Source: an uncultured bacterium | GTDB taxonomy: Bacteria; Bacteroidota; Ignavibacteria; Kapaibacteriales; UBA4661 | Assembly: GCA_937899715.1 (NCBI GenBank) | Contig: CALCNX010000089.1 | Coordinates: 9,213-73,212, forward strand | DNA: 64,000 nt | Reading direction: 5' to 3' | Part shown: positions 2,549-43,560 of the stretch, one piece after another | How the letters are laid out: every line of letters begins with the position of its first letter | Numbering within the stretch: the stretch's first letter is position 1 | Translations under genes and position numbers: made by a program | The notes under the pieces: model-generated | What the model was told of the DNA's origin: nothing | The model's database searches: none | What the model saw: the letters and a program-made list of their open reading frames with translations, nothing else

Positions 2549-3520
2549 TCATACTTCACCCCTGCGTGGCAGCAGAACTACAAAGGTCGAACCTTGCCCC
2601 AACTCGCTTTCCACCCATATTTGCCCGTGATGCAATTCTACAACCCGTTTTGTAATTGCCAAGCCCACGCCGTGCGAGGATTCGTCGCCCGTCGGACGTG
2701 CTGAAAGGCGCTGAAAAAAGCCAAATAATTTTTGCTTGTCTTCTTCGGTAAAGCCAGGACCTTCGTCCTCGACCTCAAAGCGAATCGTATCGGGAAGTGC
2801 CATGACACGTGTTTGCACCAATGCTCTATGCGGTGAGTACTTGAGCGCATTGCTCACAAAATTTTCCAGCACTTGCTGAACAAGAATCGCATCGGCATAG
2901 AGCGTAAAATCGTCACCCGCGCTGGTGAGTTTGATTGTCTGCCCTTTTTCTTGAGCGCGTAAGCGATTTTGCTCGGCTGTGGCTTCAAGGAGTTTTTTCG
3001 CATTGCACGTGGACTTATTAACCTGAATCCTACCCATTTCCATTGCCGAACTTGCCAGCAGGCTTTCAATCAAGGCAAGCATTCGTTCACAAATCTCACG
3101 GATTCTCGCGCCCGACTCAGGAAATTCTTCGGCAGTAATTTCACCCATCTCAATAAGTTGCACTGCCGCAAGCACTGATGCTAACGGGCTTTTGAGGTCG
3201 TGCGAGACCACGCTGAGAAGCTCCGTTTTGCGCTTATTGGCATCTTCCGCTTTTTTCAGGTTCGCCTCCGATTCTGCAAGAGCCTTTTCCAATTGAGTTT
3301 GCAGGCGAATGAGTTTCGTTTGGTTAAAATCGCTAATACGAGTGAGCTGGGTACTTTCGCGGAGCATAACGGCGTAGCGCTCCGCTAAGATGCGATATTC
3401 ATCGTGGAGGGCAGGCAAAGTCAGGCTTTCTGTCGCCGCACTACTCAGCACTTTAGCATGGTCAAGAAGTTCTTCCTCAGCACGGAAAACAGACTGGTGC
3501 TCGCTGTTTGCCATCGGCAT
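2549..3520 (-). CDS. Cytoplasmic sensor histidine kinase (coiled-coil / HisKA / HATPase_c).
   Basis: H-box SVVSHDLKSPLASV, and N, G1 and G2 boxes in the C-terminal half (VSNALKYSP, EDEGPGF, GVGLAITKRVVELHHG). No transmembrane segment. The ORF-track start at 3568 is TTG, so I chose the in-frame ATG at 3520 (MPMANSEHQ...). Confidence 0.75.
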   Translation of the reverse strand: MPMANSEHQSVFRAEEELLDHAKVLSSAATESLTLPALHDEYRILAERYAVMLRESTQLTRISDFNQTKLIRLQTQLEKALAESEANLKKAEDANKRKTELLSVVSHDLKSPLASVLAAVQLIEMGEITAEEFPESGARIREICERMLALIESLLASSAMEMGRIQVNKSTCNAKKLLEATAEQNRLRAQEKGQTIKLTSAGDDFTLYADAILVQQVLENFVSNALKYSPHRALVQTRVMALPDTIRFEVEDEGPGFTEEDKQKLFGFFQRLSARPTGDESSHGVGLAITKRVVELHHGQIWVESELGQGSTFVVLLPRRGEV

Positions 3521-4058
3521 TGGTAATTTGCGGTTGTGGTGTGTGGAATTACGACGGAATTTACACAAGCCTCAGGCTTTGGCAAAAAGAATTCTATGTT
3601 GGGAATTATTTATTACATCAATCTACTTTTAACACTACTCGAATCAAATCTCTGCACGGAAGGCGCAGAGTAGCCCAATCATAATTATTAGGATTTTCGC
3701 AAACAAATCGGAGCGCGAGCGAAAACCCGCATATATACTGACTTTATCTTACTAACCGAACTTTTGTTCGGACCCCAAAAGAGCATTTTTGCAAAAGTCA
3801 TAATTATATCTTGCATAGTCGAATTTGAACTATACTTTCCTTGCAATACTGTACTCAGATGCTGCAACCACTTCCTCTTTGCGTACTTTTACGTGCTTTT
3901 TTTTATTGATATGCGTAGATGTTCTTGCCTCCTACGTGCGTAATAATCAGGTGTTTGACCGTATAGCATTGACCTCTCCAATATCGTAATTTTGTATCAG
4001 AAATTAACACTTGCCCATCCATCAAGTATCTTTTCATTTCTTGAGACATCATTGAACT

Positions 4059-4637
4059 ATGACTATTGAGTCCAAATCCGATATTGCAATTCTACACAAG
4101 ACCAGATTGTGTGTGAGCAATTCGACAATAATTTCTCCTATTCAATTTGGGATTCATGCTGCGCAGCAGTGTACGGTGAGGGAGAAAGCAGAGCCTTCTT
4201 CGGTAATAGCAGTGGCAGCGAATAGTCAGCCCGTATTGCAAGGATTGACACGATATTTGAAAGCATCACACTTTCACGCTGTGGCGGTTATGGCTTCTCC
4301 GGCGGAATTGGCTTCTTCGATTTCTGAAATTCGCCCTAAGGTGGTTATCATTGAAATTTCATCGCAGTCTATGGAAGGTTTTGAAGCAATTACAGCTATT
4401 CATCGCAGCAATCCCGCCATAAAGATTCTTGTGCTGGCAGATTATACAATGCCATCGCTTGTGAAAATGGTATTTCGTTCGGGAGCGCACGGTTATTTAC
4501 TCGCCATGCCTACACAGACAGCTATGCTACAAGCGCTGGATGCCCTTGGCAATGCAAAAAGTGTCCTTGATAAACAACTCGTTTATCTTCAACCAATACT
4601 AAGCAGCGTACTGACCACAGGATGCGTTACCGTTTGA
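4059..4637 (+). CDS. Degenerate (pseudo-)receiver domain protein; response-regulator fold lacking the phospho-acceptor Asp.
   Basis: Alternating beta/alpha receiver-like pattern. The DD acid pocket is replaced by AN (VIAVAANS) and the phospho-Asp by Glu (VVIIEISS). The conserved Lys position reads LAMP. It sits among the signalling genes. Confidence 0.45.
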   Translation: MTIESKSDIAILHKTRLCVSNSTIISPIQFGIHAAQQCTVREKAEPSSVIAVAANSQPVLQGLTRYLKASHFHAVAVMASPAELASSISEIRPKVVIIEISSQSMEGFEAITAIHRSNPAIKILVLADYTMPSLVKMVFRSGAHGYLLAMPTQTAMLQALDALGNAKSVLDKQLVYLQPILSSVLTTGCVTV

Positions 4638-8894: not shown

Positions 8895-10182
8895 AGAGAA
8901 ATTTTTGCTTGTTGACGAGCTGCAGTTTTTTTCCGCGAATAAACGCCGACTCTACGCTGTTGGTACGCATATCAAGTGCATCGCCATCCGAAACAAAGAG
9001 CGTTGCGTCTTTGCCTACTTCGAGTGTTCCCAAGCGGTCATCTACGCCAAGAATTTTTGCCACATTCGCTGAAATAGCCATCAATGCCTCTTCTTTGCTC
9101 AGTCCGTACGCAGCAGCCGTGCCTGCCTCAAAGCCAATATTTCGCTGCTGCCAGCCTTGCGGGATAGCGCCTGTCGAATAGAGTATACCCGCTTTTTGTA
9201 ATGCGGCGGGAGTTTTGTAAGGCTGCTCAATATCATCTGACCAGCGTTCCGGCAAATTGTGTGTACCTTCCAACATTACGGGAACATTATTTGCTTTGAG
9301 CACATCGGTTAAAAGCCAACTATCGGCACCACCGACAATAACAGGTGTAATGCCAAATTCTTTCGCAAAATTGACAGCCGCCAAAATTGATTTAGCATGG
9401 TCAGCACGGATAAAGAGCTTTTTTGAGCCATCAAACAAACCGCGCATTGCCTCGAAGCGAAGGTTTTTTTCTTTCGGTGTGCTTTTCACATAGCTTTGTG
9501 CTTCGCGGAAAAACTGATACAATGCAGCAATTTGTTTAGCAATCGTTTCATCTTGTGTCTTGCGGTCAGGTTCTAACGCTCCGGGCTGACGTGTGATAGT
9601 CGGAAAATTAACATGAATGCCCACATCAGTTTTGAGTGCTGCATCTTCCCAGTTCCACGCATCCATTTCCATCACCGATGAGCGTCCTGATACCAAACCG
9701 CCTCTGGGAGCAACCATTGCCGCAAGCACTCCATTGAAGCGGACGGTCGGAATAATCTGTGATTCAGCATTGTAGGCGATGAGCGCCCGCACGTGCGGAT
9801 TCAGCGAACCGACTTCGTCTGCGTCGTTTGTGGAGCGCACTGCTTCTACTTCCACCAGACCCAGCGTTGTATTAGCAGCAATAAAGCCCGGATAAACGTG
9901 CTTTCCTTTCACATCCACTACGTCAGCCCCGGTGCGGTCAAACGCTGCGTCTGCTTTGCCAACAAGTGTGATTTTTCCACTCGCAAAGCCCACCACACTG
10001 TTCTCAAGGACAGTGCCATTACCAACGTGGACAGTCGCGCCCACAAGGAACAGAGGCTTTGTCTGTGCTGTGGCAGGTGTGGGTATAGATTGTGCGAAAA
10101 GATGTGGCATCGCCGCCGCAATAATGAGAATCAAAATTGCAAGAGAAATTGCTATAAAGCGAGGAAGGAAGCGGTTTTTCAT
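8860..10182 (-). CDS. Secreted metal-dependent amidohydrolase-family protein.
   Basis: N-terminal signal peptide MKNRFLPRFIAISLAILILIIAAAMPHLFAQ. Amidohydrolase fold motifs (HVHLG-like region; …GTDSWP…-like segments). 26 nt downstream of argD on the same strand. Confidence 0.65.
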   Translation of the reverse strand: MKNRFLPRFIAISLAILILIIAAAMPHLFAQSIPTPATAQTKPLFLVGATVHVGNGTVLENSVVGFASGKITLVGKADAAFDRTGADVVDVKGKHVYPGFIAANTTLGLVEVEAVRSTNDADEVGSLNPHVRALIAYNAESQIIPTVRFNGVLAAMVAPRGGLVSGRSSVMEMDAWNWEDAALKTDVGIHVNFPTITRQPGALEPDRKTQDETIAKQIAALYQFFREAQSYVKSTPKEKNLRFEAMRGLFDGSKKLFIRADHAKSILAAVNFAKEFGITPVIVGGADSWLLTDVLKANNVPVMLEGTHNLPERWSDDIEQPYKTPAALQKAGILYSTGAIPQGWQQRNIGFEAGTAAAYGLSKEEALMAISANVAKILGVDDRLGTLEVGKDATLFVSDGDALDMRTNSVESAFIRGKKLQLVNKQKFLYEQYKAKYGQK

Positions 10183-10208: not shown

Positions 10209-11423
10209 TTAGTTGATATTTGCTTGTTCGGAGTGTGCTTTGAAACAATCTTGCATAGCGACGACAAACTCATCCACTTCTTTGCGAGTGGCGATAAGCG
10301 GCGGTAGCAACCGAATAACGGTGTCGGCTGTGGCATTAGCCACCACACGGCGCTTGAGCAGTGCCTCAATAAATGGTGCGGCGGGAACACTGAGTTTCAA
10401 GCCCGCCATAAAGCCGCACCCACGCACTTCTTCGACGATATTTGGAAAATTTTGCTGAATCACATTCAGGTTTTCACGCAAGTAACAGCCTACTTCGTGG
10501 ACGTTTCGCATCACGCCGCCGTAGAGTTCTTTCATCACGACAACCCCTGCCGCACACGCCACAGGGTTCCCGCCGAAGGTCGTTCCGTGCATCCCTTTGT
10601 CCCAGACGGTTTCCAAATGCTGCGCCATCAAAATAGCACCCAATGGCAGTCCGCCACCGATGCCTTTTGCCATCGTAACAATATCGGGCTTGACAAGGTA
10701 GTGGTCGAAGCCGAAAAATTTGCCTGTTCGTCCTGCGCCTGCCTGCACTTCATCGGCAATAATCAGAAAACCATATTGCTCCTGCAATTCCAATAACGTG
10801 GTAACAAACTCCGGCGCGGCAAAGACAATACCGCCCTCGCCTTGAAGAAACTCCAGCACCACGGCACACGTTTTCTCGTTGACGGCATCACGCAGTGTCT
10901 CGCTGTTATTGAAAGGAAGTACGTGCGCATTCGGGAGAAACGGCTCCATACCGTCTTTGTAAAGCGGTTTTGCCATGATAGAAAGCGCTCCGTAGGTGCG
11001 TCCATGGAAGCCACCCGTGAAAGCGAGCACTTCTGTTTTTCCTCGTGTGTTCCCCCACTTACGAGCCAGTTTTAATGCGCCCTCCATAGCTTCTGTGCCG
11101 GAGTTCGAGAAAAATACTCGTGCATAGCCCGTGTGCTGCACCAATAATTCTGCCAATTCTATTTGTGGTTCTTGGTAGAATACGTTGGAGAGATGCATAA
11201 AGGCTTGTGCCTGTCGGGTAACGGCATCCAGTAAGCGCGGATGACCGTAGCCAAGCGCATTGACGGCTATACCGCTCAGAAAATCAAGATATGAATCCCC
11301 ATCTACGCTTGTGATGCGGCAGCCGGATGCGTAGTGAACCGCAATCGGCAATCGCCGATAGACCTGATACATGGACTGCTGCTCACGTTCAATGACTGCT
11401 TGACTGGAAGTCGGAATATTCAT
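10209..11423 (-). CDS. argD: Class-III pyridoxal-phosphate aminotransferase, most like acetylornithine aminotransferase.
   Basis: Class-III signatures FSNSGTEAMEGALKLARK and IADEVQAGAGRTGKFFGFDH with a PLP-lysine region DIVTMAKGIGGGLPLGA. Size and start are typical of ArgD. Confidence 0.8.
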   Translation of the reverse strand: MNIPTSSQAVIEREQQSMYQVYRRLPIAVHYASGCRITSVDGDSYLDFLSGIAVNALGYGHPRLLDAVTRQAQAFMHLSNVFYQEPQIELAELLVQHTGYARVFFSNSGTEAMEGALKLARKWGNTRGKTEVLAFTGGFHGRTYGALSIMAKPLYKDGMEPFLPNAHVLPFNNSETLRDAVNEKTCAVVLEFLQGEGGIVFAAPEFVTTLLELQEQYGFLIIADEVQAGAGRTGKFFGFDHYLVKPDIVTMAKGIGGGLPLGAILMAQHLETVWDKGMHGTTFGGNPVACAAGVVVMKELYGGVMRNVHEVGCYLRENLNVIQQNFPNIVEEVRGCGFMAGLKLSVPAAPFIEALLKRRVVANATADTVIRLLPPLIATRKEVDEFVVAMQDCFKAHSEQANIN

Positions 11424-11898
11424 CGGCAGGGGTGAAAAGTATCACAAAATGATAATGGATATGAAACAGTAAAAATACAAAACACTCCGCACAAAGACTA
11501 GAAATTCATTACCAAACTAACAAAAAATTGTTTGACTGCTTTTTGATATTTTGGGGAGAGTTTAACTTGTTCTGTGTAAACTCCCCCACACCCAGCCCTC
11601 TCCCAGAGGGCAAGGGCTTTAGAGGCTTTAGAGCGGATTGGATGGTGTTCAAAAGAAGTTGATAGTGTGCTTGAGAAGCAAAGCGGCATACTGCCTTATT
11701 GTAGTTTGTCAACTCACAAAAGGAACACTACCAGATTGGTTTTTCTTATTTTAGCTCCTTCTCCTTTTGGGAGACGGTGGGGGATGAGGTCTGATTACAC
11801 AAAGATTCCGTACACTCTCATAGCAGTTCACAATTAATTACAGATGAAGAAATAGTTTATCGTCGTAACATTTTTTTGTAAGTTACGTTTGACTAACT

Positions 11899-39350: not shown

Positions 39351-39740
39351 ATGCTCACCGCGCTTCGTCATACCGATTCTCTTGCTACGCGCTCTTTCGC
39401 GCTGGCGCTTGCTGTGCTCTTTTGCACAGTGCGCATGGCTGCTGCATGGCACACCCACGAAGCATTTCACCACCACAACACGCCCGGCAGCAAGGCTGCC
39501 TCAGAAGCCTACTCCATTGCAGGTTTCGACCATAATACCTCGCCGACTAACCAGACAGCGGAGAATGACGATTGCCCGTTATGCCATGTATTGTCGCAGG
39601 GCATAGCGGAAATTGCGCTTGTAGCATTTGCTTTTGCACTTGCCCTCATGCTTGTTTTGCTTCTTGCGTCGGTATCATTTTCACCTGCTCGCCTCTCCAT
39701 TTCTTGCCTTTCCGACCGCGCTCCTCCTCGTTTCGCATAA
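39351..39740 (+). CDS. Hypothetical small His/Cys-containing membrane protein upstream of a TonB-dependent receptor.
   Basis: N-terminal hydrophobic segment, a His cluster HTHEAFHHHN, a DDCPLCH motif, and a C-terminal TM. No family recognised. Confidence 0.4.
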   Translation: MLTALRHTDSLATRSFALALAVLFCTVRMAAAWHTHEAFHHHNTPGSKAASEAYSIAGFDHNTSPTNQTAENDDCPLCHVLSQGIAEIALVAFAFALALMLVLLLASVSFSPARLSISCLSDRAPPRFA

Positions 39741-39804: not shown

Positions 39805-42276
39805 ATGACCATTTCACGACATAGCTTTGTGCTGTGGGCGTGTATGATGCTTACGCAATGCTGCTTCATACCAGCGTTGTACGGGCAAATACTCGTCGGC
39901 ACGGTGCTGGATAATCGCACCAGTAAGCCACTTTCCAGCGTACGCCTCTACATCCTCGAAAGTAAACGTGGTATGCTTTCACGTGCGGATGGGTCATTTA
40001 CGCTTCCTATCGGCGAACGCGGCACGTACACGCTTCGCGCAACACTTCTTGGCTATACGGCACTGGAAGAGCGTATTGTGGCTACTTCTCCAGATACCAT
40101 TCGCATTCGTATCCGTTTGCAGCAAGCCGTAGTGCGCCTTGCTGCTGCACGAGTCGTTACCGACCGTATCAATTCGGACAATTTGCCAACACAAAACATG
40201 ACCACTATTACCACACAAGATTTGGAGCGCTCTCGCGGGCAAACCTTTGGCGAGGCACTGCAAAATGTAGCGGGGGTAACACTTATGCAGACAGGAGCTT
40301 CGATTTCAAAGCCTGTTATTCGAGGGTTGCACAGCCAGCGTATCGTGGTGGTCAACGCAGGAGTAGCACAAGAAGGACAGCAGTGGGGCGCAGAGCACGC
40401 GCCGGAGATTGACCCCTTCGCTCCCTCCAAGATAGAAGTGGTGCGTGGTGCGGCGGGTGTGGAATATGGTGCGGGCGCTATCGGTGGCGTGATTCGGGTT
40501 CTCCCGCGAACGCTACCTCGCGGCACGTGGTTTGGTGGGGAAGCACAAACAGCTCTTTTTACTAATAACTCACAAGGCGTATTATCACTGGCATTAGAAG
40601 GCGGAAAGGCGGTAATTGGTGATAGTAACACGCTGCTGAATGAACTTGGTAAGGGGTTTGGCTGGCGCACGCAAGGCAGCGCAAGGCGGGCAGGCGATTC
40701 GCGTGCACCGTCGTATGTGATTGGTAATACAGGTTTTCAGGAAATAAATGGTTCCGTAGCATTTGGTTACACCGGGGAGCGCTTTGGAATTGAAGCCTAT
40801 TACTCACTTTTTACCACCGAACTCGGTATTTTTAGCGGTGCGCATATCGGAAGTTTACCTGATTTGTTGCGGGCGATGGAGAATGGTCGCCCCTTAGTGG
40901 ATTATGAATGGACGTACGCGATTGATGCGCCAAAGCAGCAAATTACGCATGATTTGTGGTCGGTAAATGCCCATTATGCTGCGGACTGTGGGCGCTTCGA
41001 GCTGCAATACGGCTGGCAGCAAAATAATCGTGCCGAATTCGATAGCCACAATGCTCGTATTCGCGGGGATTCGGGCGTGCTCATGCAATCGCTCATGCGC
41101 CCCGCCATGAACTTGCAATTAACAACGTATTCGCTTGATGCAAAATTTCGCCACAAGCCACTGAACATTGCACCCGAAGCCGTACTGACGGGCATTGTGG
41201 GCGGGAGCGGTGTAGCGCAATGGAACGTGCAGAGCGGTAGGGCGTTTCTGATTCCTAGTTTTCAAGCGCAGTCCGGGGGAGCATATTTGATTGAAACGTT
41301 GGCAATGCCTGATTTTATCGCCAATGCAGGATTCCGCTATGATGCGCGGCACGTGAACGTCATCGGCTCGGAATTTCGGGATATTCCCGACACAACGCAG
41401 ACGTTTTCCGGTTTTTCTGCGGCACTTGGCGTGGTGATGAATTTTGGGTTGGAAATAAACACAAACGACAGCACACAATTTATATCACTGCAAACTAGCC
41501 AAAGACCATCCTTCAAGCCGTTTTCCCTTGCACTCAATCTTGCTTCGGCATGGCGAGCGCCGCTGGTGAACGAGCAATTTTCCGAAGGCGTTCATCACGG
41601 CACGGCACAATATGAAATCGGTAATCCGAACCTGAAGCCGGAACGCAGTTACAGCGCAGATGCGACGCTGGCATTGCGAACCGAAAAAGCTCACTTTGAA
41701 CTCAGCGGCTACGTGAACACGATTGATAATTTTATCTATCTTCGTCCTGACGCTGCAAATCCGACGGTTACGATTCGCGGAACATTTCCGACCTTTCACT
41801 ACGCCCAGACATTTGCACTCTTGCGGGGTGTGGATGCAAGTGCCGATGCTCTTTTGAGCGATAATGTGCGCTTGGGCGGAACGCTCTCACTTGTGCGTGG
41901 TGATAATGTTGCTGACTCCGAGCCGCTTATTTTCATGCCTGCCGACCGACTTCGTTCGTTTATTCGCTACGAAGCTGCGTCATTGCTTGGCATGGCGGAT
42001 ATCTTTGCAGAAATCTCGTCAACACTTGTGCGGACACAAGACCGCTTCCCTGCGAATGTGGATTATGCTGCGCCACCGCCCGGCTATGTACTGTTTGATT
42101 GCGCAGTGGGAGGGCACGTGGAAACGTTCGGCACAAGACTTTCGTGGAATGTATCAGTGCGGAATATTGCAAACACGGCGTATCGAGACTATCTCAGCCG
42201 CTACCGTTATTTCACCGATGATCCGGGGCGGAACGTGGTTGTGCGAGTATCGGTGCCGTTTGGAGATGGGCGGTGA
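39805..42276 (+). CDS. TonB-dependent outer-membrane receptor with an N-terminal carboxypeptidase-regulatory-like domain.
   Basis: Signal peptide; CarbopepD_reg-like segment ILVGTVLDNRTSKPLSSVRLYI; plug domain; C-terminal beta-barrel with an aromatic terminus. Confidence 0.85.
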   Translation: MTISRHSFVLWACMMLTQCCFIPALYGQILVGTVLDNRTSKPLSSVRLYILESKRGMLSRADGSFTLPIGERGTYTLRATLLGYTALEERIVATSPDTIRIRIRLQQAVVRLAAARVVTDRINSDNLPTQNMTTITTQDLERSRGQTFGEALQNVAGVTLMQTGASISKPVIRGLHSQRIVVVNAGVAQEGQQWGAEHAPEIDPFAPSKIEVVRGAAGVEYGAGAIGGVIRVLPRTLPRGTWFGGEAQTALFTNNSQGVLSLALEGGKAVIGDSNTLLNELGKGFGWRTQGSARRAGDSRAPSYVIGNTGFQEINGSVAFGYTGERFGIEAYYSLFTTELGIFSGAHIGSLPDLLRAMENGRPLVDYEWTYAIDAPKQQITHDLWSVNAHYAADCGRFELQYGWQQNNRAEFDSHNARIRGDSGVLMQSLMRPAMNLQLTTYSLDAKFRHKPLNIAPEAVLTGIVGGSGVAQWNVQSGRAFLIPSFQAQSGGAYLIETLAMPDFIANAGFRYDARHVNVIGSEFRDIPDTTQTFSGFSAALGVVMNFGLEINTNDSTQFISLQTSQRPSFKPFSLALNLASAWRAPLVNEQFSEGVHHGTAQYEIGNPNLKPERSYSADATLALRTEKAHFELSGYVNTIDNFIYLRPDAANPTVTIRGTFPTFHYAQTFALLRGVDASADALLSDNVRLGGTLSLVRGDNVADSEPLIFMPADRLRSFIRYEAASLLGMADIFAEISSTLVRTQDRFPANVDYAAPPPGYVLFDCAVGGHVETFGTRLSWNVSVRNIANTAYRDYLSRYRYFTDDPGRNVVVRVSVPFGDGR

Positions 42277-42286
42277 GAGACATCAT

Positions 42287-42529
42287 TTACCGAGCAAGTT
42301 CCAAAGGCTCGTGCACAAGCAGCATTAAATCTTGCGTTGAGATAGATTCGATGGCAAATGCTTTGCCGTTCAGGTCAGCAAATTCAACCAAGGCAAACTC
42401 TCCAATGTGATCATCAACGACTGTTCCGCCACAGCCACGCGGCAGTACAATCTGTTTACCGCTTGCAAAGTGAGTTGTAGTGAGCTCTTTGAGCAAAACA
42501 ACAGCAGAATGTTCTTGAAGTATTGGCAT
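42287..42529 (-). CDS. DUF4926-like small protein.
   Basis: 80 aa. The pattern VVLLKEL…GKQIVLPRGCGGTVVDDHIGEFALVEFADLNGKAFAIESISTQDL matches what I recall of DUF4926 (SH3-like, E[VF]EF.D..G). AT-rich local composition. Confidence 0.5.
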   Translation of the reverse strand: MPILQEHSAVVLLKELTTTHFASGKQIVLPRGCGGTVVDDHIGEFALVEFADLNGKAFAIESISTQDLMLLVHEPLELAR

Positions 42530-42543
42530 AAATTACATCCTTG

Positions 42544-42882
42544 TTAATCAATGTAAGCAGTTGATAGATGAGGTACTTGAGTTTTATGATTTACACACCA
42601 CCCCGTGCGAATACGACAAGTGCTGACATCAGTGGTCAGGTTGAAAACAATATTGTAAATATCGCAATAGGGTGTGGTCTTAACAAAAAACGCTTGATTG
42701 GTTTGTGAAGCAGAAAAGATTGCATCCAGTAGAATTTCGCTATTCGTCTGAGAAATACCAAGCAACCGTTGAAATAAAAGAGCTTTATGCTTGCCATATT
42801 CATGCTCTGTATTCAAACAGTATTGCTCAACTTTTTCAAGAATTTGCTTGCGGTCAATCATGGAAGCATTTGGCAGATACAT
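42544..42882 (-). CDS. Conserved hypothetical small protein, upstream partner of the DUF4926-like gene.
   Basis: 112 aa, 14 nt upstream of the DUF4926-like gene on the same strand. No recognisable domain; I am unsure whether it is DUF6883-like. Confidence 0.4.
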   Translation of the reverse strand: MYLPNASMIDRKQILEKVEQYCLNTEHEYGKHKALLFQRLLGISQTNSEILLDAIFSASQTNQAFFVKTTPYCDIYNIVFNLTTDVSTCRIRTGWCVNHKTQVPHLSTAYID

Positions 42883-42981
42883 AGCAATAATAGGATTTTA
42901 ACAGACAACCTTTACCAAAACTACAATTTTTCTGTCATTAGTTCATAGTTTTTGCTTTTTCACCCTTTTCCCCAAAACATT

Positions 42982-43560
42982 ATGAAGACCTTTTTTTCTC
43001 GCACTAATGCCATTAAAACGGCATGGTTACTTCTGTTCGTAACACTAGCATTGACAAATGCTTGCCGCCCTATCTCCAATCCTGCACAAACAGACCTTGA
43101 GGAAGTCTTGCCGAACGTGATAACGCTGACCTTGAGCAGTCCGCAGGGCAATACCACTGCCGTTTGGCATGGCTCTACCAATGCAACGGGTTCAGCAGTG
43201 CATATCGACACACTCGTTCTTGCGGCAGGGCGCACGTATGCCGGTGCGATTAGCGCCGTGAATGCAACCAAGTCGCCCAGCGTTGATTTGACTGCCGAGT
43301 ACAAAAAACTGGCGGATGAGCATCAGTTTTTTTATATCGTTGCGGGAGATGCGAAAAACCGCGTGAGTATTACTGTTACCGATAAAGACGGAAATAATTT
43401 GCCCGTCGGCTTGGAGTTTACCCTTGCCGCAAGTGCAGGCGCATCAGTGCGCGGGACGCTCAACGTCGTGCTTTCGCATTATGACGGGGTGAAGAAAAAT
43501 GGTACTAGTATGAGTTCGGAAAGCGATATTGATATTACTTTTCCGGTAGTTATTCGGTAG
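42982..43560 (+). CDS. Hypothetical lipoprotein with a beta-rich secreted domain.
   Basis: Signal/lipobox MKTFFSRTNAIKTAWLLLFVTLALTNAC. ATG at 42982; the track start is TTG. Confidence 0.5.
   Translation: MKTFFSRTNAIKTAWLLLFVTLALTNACRPISNPAQTDLEEVLPNVITLTLSSPQGNTTAVWHGSTNATGSAVHIDTLVLAAGRTYAGAISAVNATKSPSVDLTAEYKKLADEHQFFYIVAGDAKNRVSITVTDKDGNNLPVGLEFTLAASAGASVRGTLNVVLSHYDGVKKNGTSMSSESDIDITFPVVIR

Follow-up and report, generated by a model that had tools for sequence, protein, structure and literature searches.

A predicted toxin-antidote gene pair of the DUF6883 and DUF4926 families in an uncultured member of the Ignavibacteria

Introduction

Why do two small genes lie wedged between a TonB-dependent receptor gene and a lipoprotein gene in the genome of an uncultured bacterium (Bacteroidota; Ignavibacteria; Kapaibacteriales; UBA4661), and what do they encode? 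The locus lies in contig CALCNX010000089.1 (NCBI GenBank assembly GCA_937899715.1), of which we analysed a stretch of 64,000 nucleotides (nt), positions 9,213 to 73,212 of the forward strand, here called the window. A first-pass annotation, made from the letters of the window alone, had described a gene for a DUF4926-like protein and a gene for an unknown partner in an AT-rich pocket, and had suggested that such pairs are often toxin-antitoxin-like or phage-defence-associated accessory cargo. Our analysis indicates that toxin-antitoxin-like is the best reading of the pair, with the 112-amino-acid (aa) product of the upstream gene as the toxin and the DUF4926 protein as its predicted neutralizer. 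In particular, we judge it probable that the pair is a free-standing, chromosomal toxin-antidote module in toxin-first order, in which a DUF6883 protein is a colicin-like BECR (Barnase/EndoU/Colicin/RelE) endoribonuclease that is held inactive by an acidic DUF4926 protein.

The two families have been placed together before. In the passages of a preprint that we consulted (Pham et al., August 2026, bioRxiv 10.64898/2026.08.28.747851), a family termed BECR-Tox3 recovers DUF6883 proteins, which are often fused to Phage_Mu_F and commonly have DUF4926 downstream of them, "suggesting a toxin-immunity organization". The equivalence of DUF6883 and BECR-Tox3 is taken here from the statement in those passages.

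Results

Two small genes of known families

The predicted toxin gene (42544..42882, minus strand), taken from a mechanical list of open reading frames (ORFs) and assigned with Pfam, encodes a free-standing protein of 112 aa. The predicted antidote (immunity or antitoxin) gene (42287..42529, minus strand), recognized by Pfam, isoelectric point (pI), pairing, and the ratio of non-synonymous to synonymous substitution rates (dN/dS), encodes a protein of 80 aa. The spacer between the toxin stop and the antidote start, read directly from the sequence, is 14 nt long (42530..42543, minus strand); the ORF list agrees with the first-pass annotation on the sizes, the shared strand, and the spacing of the two genes.

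Profile searches assign both proteins to families. The 112-aa protein, previously the unknown partner, belongs to Pfam DUF6883 (PF21814; 68 bits against a cut-off of 27, E 1e-18, profile positions 13-108 of 110), a BECR-fold, RNase-type toxin domain. The 80-aa protein belongs to Pfam DUF4926 (PF16277; 36.3 bits against a gathering cut-off of 29.1, profile positions 1-56 of 57), an assignment that had been made by eye and that holds under profile search. The motif on which it was based is present, GEFALVEFADLNGKAF; F50, D52, and G55 are shared by all six partners compared.

Comparison with a metagenomic copy, L001, shows protein identities of 96% for the toxin and about 99% for the partner (L numbers denote homologous loci; L001 and L002 are the same locus as that of the window, and L003 and L004 belong to an Ignavibacteria metagenome-assembled genome, MAG). 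Specifically, the toxin gene carries 11 synonymous and 5 non-synonymous changes (dN/dS 0.115), and the DUF4926 gene carries 12 synonymous and 3 non-synonymous changes (dN/dS 0.068). Both genes are under purifying selection, and this dN/dS of about 0.1, together with the Pfam gathering scores passed, identifies both ORFs as real genes.

Fold and conserved residues of the DUF6883 protein

The AlphaFold2 model of the toxin, built from a 114-sequence alignment, is very confident (predicted local distance difference test, pLDDT, 97.4; predicted template modelling score, pTM, 0.89). It comprises helices at residues 11-22, 31-41, and 49-61, followed by a four-stranded antiparallel sheet at residues 63-69, 73-83, 88-98, and 104-111. 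A fold search returned matches of the RelE superfamily and of colicin type, including a Salmonella toxin-antitoxin (TA) toxin, BrnT, RelE, MqsR, ParE, HigB2, and colicin D, and Foldseek on the model returned the same two top families as that search, with a probability of 1.00. The model indicates that the DUF6883 protein has a BECR fold of the colicin-like branch, with helices on a four-stranded antiparallel sheet, and it points, with high confidence, to a structural link between DUF6883 and nucleases that cut the acceptor stem of transfer RNA (tRNA), in the proximity of the tRNases Kp342 and EC3006.

These two tRNases, the CdiA-CT toxins of Klebsiella pneumoniae 342 (6CP9, with CdiI) and E. 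coli 3006 (6CP8/6VEK), belong to contact-dependent inhibition; a table in a review lists both as cleaving uncharged tRNA-Ile(GAU) and gives the active site of Kp342 as K157, Y160, H170, R252, and T255 (PMC9086364). The layout of DUF6883 is of the same kind: Lys and Tyr lie in helix 1, His directly behind that helix, and Arg and Thr on the last strand. The DUF6883 protein is 11-15% identical to these toxins, which were not found by sequence or profile search.

Across the DUF6883 alignment, K17 and H27 are invariant; Y21, N24, H32, K33, and W95 are conserved at 90% or more; and R105 and T107 are conserved at 84% and 79%, respectively. The window toxin keeps K17, Y21, N24, H27, H32, K33, and W95 and has T108, and it carries His in place of R105 and Ser in place of T107. 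The whole sub-clade of the window toxin has H105, S107, and C73/C96 where the family has R105, T107, and G73/I96, and E101T is another clade-specific substitution at a conserved position. The catalytic residues are likely to be among the conserved cluster K17/Y21/H27/H32/K33, which lies in the N-terminal helices, and S107/T108, which lie on the final beta-strand. The C73/C96 pair sits on neighbouring strands of the model.

Free-standing and delivered forms of DUF6883

A profile search recovered 129 DUF6883 homologues, and an exhaustive search of 1.84 billion cluster representatives recovered 539 related representatives at E <= 1e-3. Free-standing proteins are the majority among the best 150 of these 539, with about 110 shorter than 130 aa. 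The free-standing form begins at a start codon of its own, and its N-terminus reads M-K-L-P-N in 98-99% of 114 sequences, with Y2 in the window copy.

In other proteins, DUF6883 is the extreme C-terminal module of a delivery protein. In particular, it follows RHS repeats and the RHS core in P0227, and it forms the C-terminus of Phage_Mu_F proteins (P0248, L014, and L015), Phage_min_cap2 proteins (P0155, P0246, and L016), and a protein with an eCIS_core domain (P0192). The MuF and minor-capsid relatives come solely from IMG/VR contigs and metagenomes. Because DUF6883 tips classical polymorphic-toxin carriers, we take it to be a toxin, and the gene that follows it is therefore the expected antidote gene.

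Further architectures were observed. A 443-aa protein from the representative search (P0258) has DUF6883 fused to DnaB_2 (replication initiation/membrane attachment), an arrangement absent from the consulted passages of the preprint. Proteins of roughly 500 aa in an Acidobacteriaceae MAG (L005:7176-8693, plus strand) and in a metagenome contig (L018:3215-4708, plus strand) have DUF6883 in mid-protein (residues about 270-370) and, rather than a distinct DUF4926 gene, a C-terminal extension of roughly 130 aa. The gene that follows in L018 matches TIR_2 weakly (19.6 bits, under the cut-off).

An acidic partner

The DUF4926 protein of the window has a pI of 4.91 and a net charge of -6. All of the partners examined (10/10) are acidic, with pI 4.2-5.2 and net charge -3 to -9, and the toxins, set against them, are neutral to basic. 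Such acidity is to be expected if the partner masks an RNA-binding surface.

DUF4926 is the sole domain of the protein (residues 6-69 of 80), and searches of Pfam and NCBIfam gave no match to a helix-turn-helix (HTH), ribbon-helix-helix (RHH), AbrB, or Phd domain. The top five matches of DUF4926 among PDB profiles are spectrin SH3 domains, all non-significant (E 0.07-0.5), by which an SH3-like character is weakly hinted at. Sequence searches of both proteins, and of the profiles A2 and A3, against PDB chains returned nothing significant. Annotated solo DUF4926 genes occur in phage genomes (PMC12590732, PMC10343443).

Conservation of the pairing

The first-pass annotation had made its proposal depend on whether the homologues are paired elsewhere. 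They are: DUF6883-DUF4926 is a conserved unit across chromosomes and plasmids of several phyla. A locus scan with a narrow alignment (A1) yielded a small number of loci, so that the pairing is counted over about a dozen independent contexts, not hundreds. In these it is strict, with DUF4926 located 7-24 nt after DUF6883 in every free-standing copy that has readable downstream DNA (L006 is cut). The readable pairs are those of the window, L001/L002, L003/L004, L007, L008, L010, and L011-L013, plus plasmids. Identity to the window pair drops in parallel for the two proteins: 61/58/53/41/38% for the toxin and 60/54/37/34/35% for the partner.

The contexts of the pair are varied. Specifically, the L007 pair adjoins trpA; the L008 pair (L008:5001-5602, plus strand; 53% identical) lies inside a resistance-nodulation-division (RND) efflux operon, on the same strand, between the membrane-fusion-protein gene and the ACR_tran pump gene, with gaps of 2 nt and 21 nt; the L010 pair lies on a cyanobacterial-type chromosome beside HicAB and Phd/YefM genes; and the L011-L013 pairs, from Planktothrix, lie beside PIN and TumE genes with three different left or right flanks. 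Plasmid pairs are present in Gloeothece (next to an IS701 transposase), Rubrobacter (near a replication initiator gene), and Rahnella.

The partner also accompanies delivered forms of the toxin. DUF4926 lies 8 nt downstream of the eCIS_core-DUF6883 fusion and follows one minor-capsid-DUF6883 fusion; MuF fusions are followed by proteins of 56-79 aa, one with a sub-threshold DUF4926 score and another with no match. The presence of a DUF4926 partner whatever the delivery mode of the toxin is the signature of a cognate immunity protein.

In Planktothrix (L011, L012, and L013), an 83-aa ORF without a Pfam family (3753-4004, plus strand), which is not present in the window, overlaps the DUF6883 start by 4 nt. 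Because three different flanking contexts retain it, this ORF is a possible third component in Planktothrix.

Age and surroundings of the pair

In L003, the pair occupies the orthologous locus, between the genes for the lipoprotein, an extracytoplasmic function (ECF) sigma factor, and a TonB_C protein on one side and the receptor gene on the other. Between the window and L003, the cassette proteins are 61-62% identical, and the flanks are 61% (lipoprotein), 66% (receptor), and 73% identical; the low GC content is conserved as well, with a GC of 0.383 for the L003 toxin gene. Because the locus is the same in L003 and the cassette is as diverged as its flanks, the pair has been resident there since before the lineages split. 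A reading as recently acquired accessory cargo is not supported, and recent horizontal acquisition, considered on account of the low GC, was rejected on the same evidence, the orthologous L003 toxin gene being equally low (0.38) and the flanks equally diverged. The DUF6883-DUF4926 family as a whole is clearly mobile. Searches for flanking direct or inverted repeats, of the kind left by a transposon or integration scar, revealed none, only chance-sized matches of 11-16 nt.

L003 has two extra genes at this spot: one, 34 nt upstream of the toxin gene (L003:7265-7966, plus strand), whose 233-aa product matches a PD-(D/E)XK nuclease weakly (17.8 bits, under the cut-off), and one for a DUF5916/CBM9 protein between the DUF4926 and receptor genes (L003:8654-10900, minus strand). 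The spot between the lipoprotein and receptor genes is accordingly variable.

The genes within 14 kb on either side of the cassette encode a PP-loop (TilS-like) protein, FtsH, an enoyl-CoA hydratase, an RsmE-type methyltransferase, an acyl-CoA dehydrogenase, a sensor of the methyl-accepting chemotaxis protein (MCP) type, the receptor, the lipoprotein, an ECF sigma factor, a TonB_C protein, cytochrome bd, a CDP-alcohol phosphatidyltransferase, an amylase, and a substrate of the type IX secretion system (T9SS). No integrase, transposase, prophage, or secretion-system gene, no gene of the RHS, contact-dependent inhibition (CDI), MuF, type VI secretion system (T6SS), or eCIS kind, and no known defence gene was found in this interval. 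PADLOC gave 0 matches, PHROGs none, and NCBIfam none, and neither protein had a tblastn match in 50,697 phage records. The suggested association with phage defence is therefore not supported: PADLOC and PHROGs are silent, and the neighbours are housekeeping and signalling genes, with no defence island among them.

Base composition and expression signals

The AT-rich pocket seen at first reading was borne out by calculation. The cassette has a GC of 0.408 (toxin gene 0.378, antidote gene 0.457, upstream intergenic region 0.315) against a mean of 0.491 for the window (standard deviation 0.033, in 596-nt segments); 1.2% of the segments are as low as the cassette, and the lowest value anywhere in the 64 kb, 0.367, belongs to the segment starting at about 42451.

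Upstream of the toxin gene lies a divergent, AT-rich intergenic region of 99 nt (42883..42981, GC about 0.32, read directly from the sequence), which is common to the toxin and lipoprotein genes and is presumed to be the promoter region of the pair. It contains TAGTTTTG at 42916-42923 (minus strand), which resembles the Bacteroidetes-type -7 element TAnnTTTG. Repeat searches found no operator-like repeat upstream of the pair, and an Rfam search of 41800-43300 gave no match. An AAGGA Shine-Dalgarno-like motif is present in the 14-nt spacer, 9 nt before the DUF4926 ATG; read directly, the sequence has no AAGGA-type motif before the toxin start. AAGGA(G) is partly conserved, being present in L007 and L008 and absent in L003, L010, and L011.

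Discussion

Proposed mechanism

In the scheme that we infer, the DUF6883 protein would be a metal-independent endoribonuclease, most probably cutting a tRNA. The DUF4926 protein would be made from the same transcript, 14 nt downstream of the toxin gene, and would bind the toxin directly and block its RNA-binding/active face, leaving the cell unharmed. Should a biological trigger cause the antidote to be lost or outpaced, the RNase would arrest translation. The module would thereby act in the manner of a type II toxin-antitoxin pair; growth arrest by the toxin and its neutralization through direct binding have indirect support only, from the acidity of the partner, the parallel divergence of the two proteins, and the purifying selection on both genes.

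The pair has features of more than one class of system. Like type II systems, it consists of small, adjacent, co-directional genes that are inherited as a unit in varied contexts, including plasmids; searches of Pfam, NCBIfam, and repeats found neither an antitoxin DNA-binding domain nor an operator. As with polymorphic toxins, the presumed cognate immunity gene lies directly downstream (14 nt), and the toxin of the window is a bare 112-aa domain with no delivery domain. The pair thus resembles polymorphic toxin-immunity pairs in having an antidote without a DNA-binding domain, yet it has no delivery domain and no nearby secretion apparatus.

Several observations weigh against a toxin-antidote module of this kind. 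DUF4926 resembles a globular immunity protein more than it does a labile antitoxin, and classical type II autoregulation is not indicated, because the protein has no recognizable DNA-binding domain; its single-sequence AlphaFold2 model is poor (pLDDT 49.6; all-beta, with five strands and a short helix). The toxin has no sequence similarity to any solved toxin that sequence and profile searches of PDB chains could detect, and, with an identity to 6CP9 of 11-14%, the mapping of the active site is one of pattern and position only. Full activity is not guaranteed, because the clade carries R105H and T107S. A sigma-70 consensus scan gave no minus-strand promoter upstream of the toxin gene, and no operator was identified. 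Finally, in the consulted passages of the preprint (bioRxiv 10.64898/2026.08.28.747851), laboratory validation concerns BECR-Tox2, not BECR-Tox3, and the DUF6883/DUF4926 members are predicted only.

Alternative explanations

Small size and low GC are what two spurious ORFs, arising by chance in an AT-rich spacer, would have, and the likelihood of that is virtually nil, since both pass the Pfam cut-offs, have homologues by the hundred, keep their synteny, and show dN/dS of about 0.1. We consider it highly improbable that the genes encode two non-toxic proteins, such as an enzyme of RNA processing and its regulatory subunit, that work for the adjacent TonB-dependent uptake locus. Such a role would account for the place between the receptor and lipoprotein/ECF-sigma/TonB_C genes being kept in two diverged genomes, but the composition of the pair is unlike that of the locus and DUF6883 is a warhead in effectors; moreover, because the pair elsewhere lies beside trpA, in an RND operon, on plasmids, and in TA clusters, it is not functionally tied to TonB uptake. 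The clade-specific substitutions R105H, T107S, and E101T at conserved positions, and the annotation of solo DUF4926 genes in phage genomes (PMC12590732, PMC10343443), would both be explained by an immunity-centred relic, in which DUF4926 protects the cell from DUF6883 warheads injected by phages or competitors and the toxin, attenuated by H105, is co-inherited. This too is very unlikely, since purifying selection on the toxin is as strong as that on the partner (dN/dS 0.115), the toxin retains K17, Y21, N24, H27, H32, K33, and W95, and the H105 clade has kept both genes across about 40% protein divergence.

The use of DUF6883 as a bona fide warhead of RHS, MuF/minor-capsid, and eCIS proteins, and the behaviour of DUF4926 as a compact immunity protein without a DNA-binding domain, could also point to an orphan polymorphic-toxin cassette: either a stored tip with its immunity gene, available for recombination onto an RHS/MuF/eCIS protein, or a secreted cargo used against neighbour cells. 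However, its own start codon and near-invariant MKLPN N-terminus make the toxin unlike a truncated tip; it carries neither a signal peptide nor a T9SS sorting or trafficking domain; and the 14 kb on either side yielded no gene for RHS, CdiA, MuF, eCIS, or T6SS. Free-standing copies, furthermore, make up most of the best 150 of 539 cluster representatives, and copies are found on plasmids beside replication genes and in toxin-antitoxin clusters. We accordingly hold the orphan cassette to be quite unlikely. An abortive-infection-type defence module is, in our judgement, also unlikely: an isoacceptor-specific tRNase would be freed when infection or stress cuts the supply of its unusual, SH3-like, non-DNA-binding antidote, the solo DUF4926 proteins of phages would be counter-defence mimics, and read-through from the receptor gene could couple antidote expression to nutrient limitation.

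Relation to known systems

The reading that we prefer, a free-standing toxin-antidote module, agrees with the preprint in the two Pfam families, the toxin-first order, and the MuF-fusion relatives, which were recovered independently here; the conserved-residue layout of DUF6883 also fits the colicin-like BECR active sites described in its consulted passages. The claim made there is computational and general, whereas the window copy is free-standing, chromosomal, and part of the H105/S107/C73/C96 sub-clade. The window copy adds a lineage and a sub-clade to the family. Supporting observations made here concern the fusions to RHS, eCIS_core, and DnaB_2, the copies on plasmids, the acidity of the partners, the lasting presence of the pair at a single locus, and the modelled structural proximity to Kp342/EC3006.

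CdiA-CT toxins are the tips of very large CdiA proteins and are delivered from cell to cell, whereas the window toxin is free-standing; the CdiI immunity proteins are larger than the window partner and are not DUF4926 proteins. The antitoxins of BrnT-BrnA, HigB-HigA, and MqsR-MqsA, which are toxin-first type II pairs with RNase toxins of the RelE superfamily, have RHH or HTH domains and autoregulate, and DUF4926 shows no such domain. The colicin-like tRNase branch is a closer match for the window toxin than are ribosome-dependent mRNases. With the MuF/minor-capsid toxins and PBECR domains (Iyer et al. 2017, PMC5512222), the family shares C-terminal DUF6883 fusions in viral contigs followed by a small DUF4926(-like) gene, as well as, by pattern and position, the same active-site logic, with His in the N-terminal helical part and Ser/Thr at the C-terminus; in contrast to MuF toxins, the window copy has no MuF domain and lies outside any prophage.

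The pair is a compact example (112 aa and 80 aa) of a widespread predicted toxin-antidote family that extends over chromosomes, plasmids, phage capsid proteins, and RHS and eCIS effectors. What the analysis supplies is a modelled structural link to acceptor-stem tRNases, candidate catalytic residues, and the observation of the same small acidic partner across delivery modes. As a genome feature, the cassette is otherwise ordinary.

Flanking genes and other features of the window

The TonB-dependent receptor gene (39805..42276, plus strand, 823 aa), a flank outside the module, is identified by its CarboxypepD_reg, Plug, and TonB_dep_Rec_b-barrel domains (Pfam). As stated in the first-pass annotation, it converges with the DUF4926 gene and stops 10 nt before the DUF4926 stop codon (gap 42277..42286, from the ORF list). 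A consensus scan found no intrinsic terminator between the two genes; the 10-nt convergent arrangement, in which no hairpin was detected by that scan, has the same layout in L001, and read-through in either direction would be antisense to the other gene.

The gene on the other side (42982..43560, plus strand), also outside the module and divergent from the toxin gene, was rightly called a lipoprotein gene: its product begins MKTFFSRTNAIKTAWLLLFVTLALTNAC, and a signal peptide and a lipobox (...LALTNAC, with the lipobox Cys) can be read from the sequence. The start is the ATG at 42982 (the listed ORF also has a start at 42952), and a Pfam search of the product gave no family.

Further low-GC pockets of the window lie at 3400-4060 and 11300-11500 (GC 0.37-0.42). 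The 3400-4060 pocket is mostly intergenic, between a histidine-kinase-like ORF (2549-3568, minus strand) and a 192-aa ORF (4059-4637, plus strand), and contains no convincing small genes. Just upstream of the receptor gene lies a His/Cys-rich ORF of 129 aa (39351-39740, plus strand) with hydrophobic segments and the sequence HTHEAFHHHNTP…CPLCH; in the corresponding interval of L001, a 36-aa gene is the only one called. The 129-aa ORF may encode a metal-related accessory protein.

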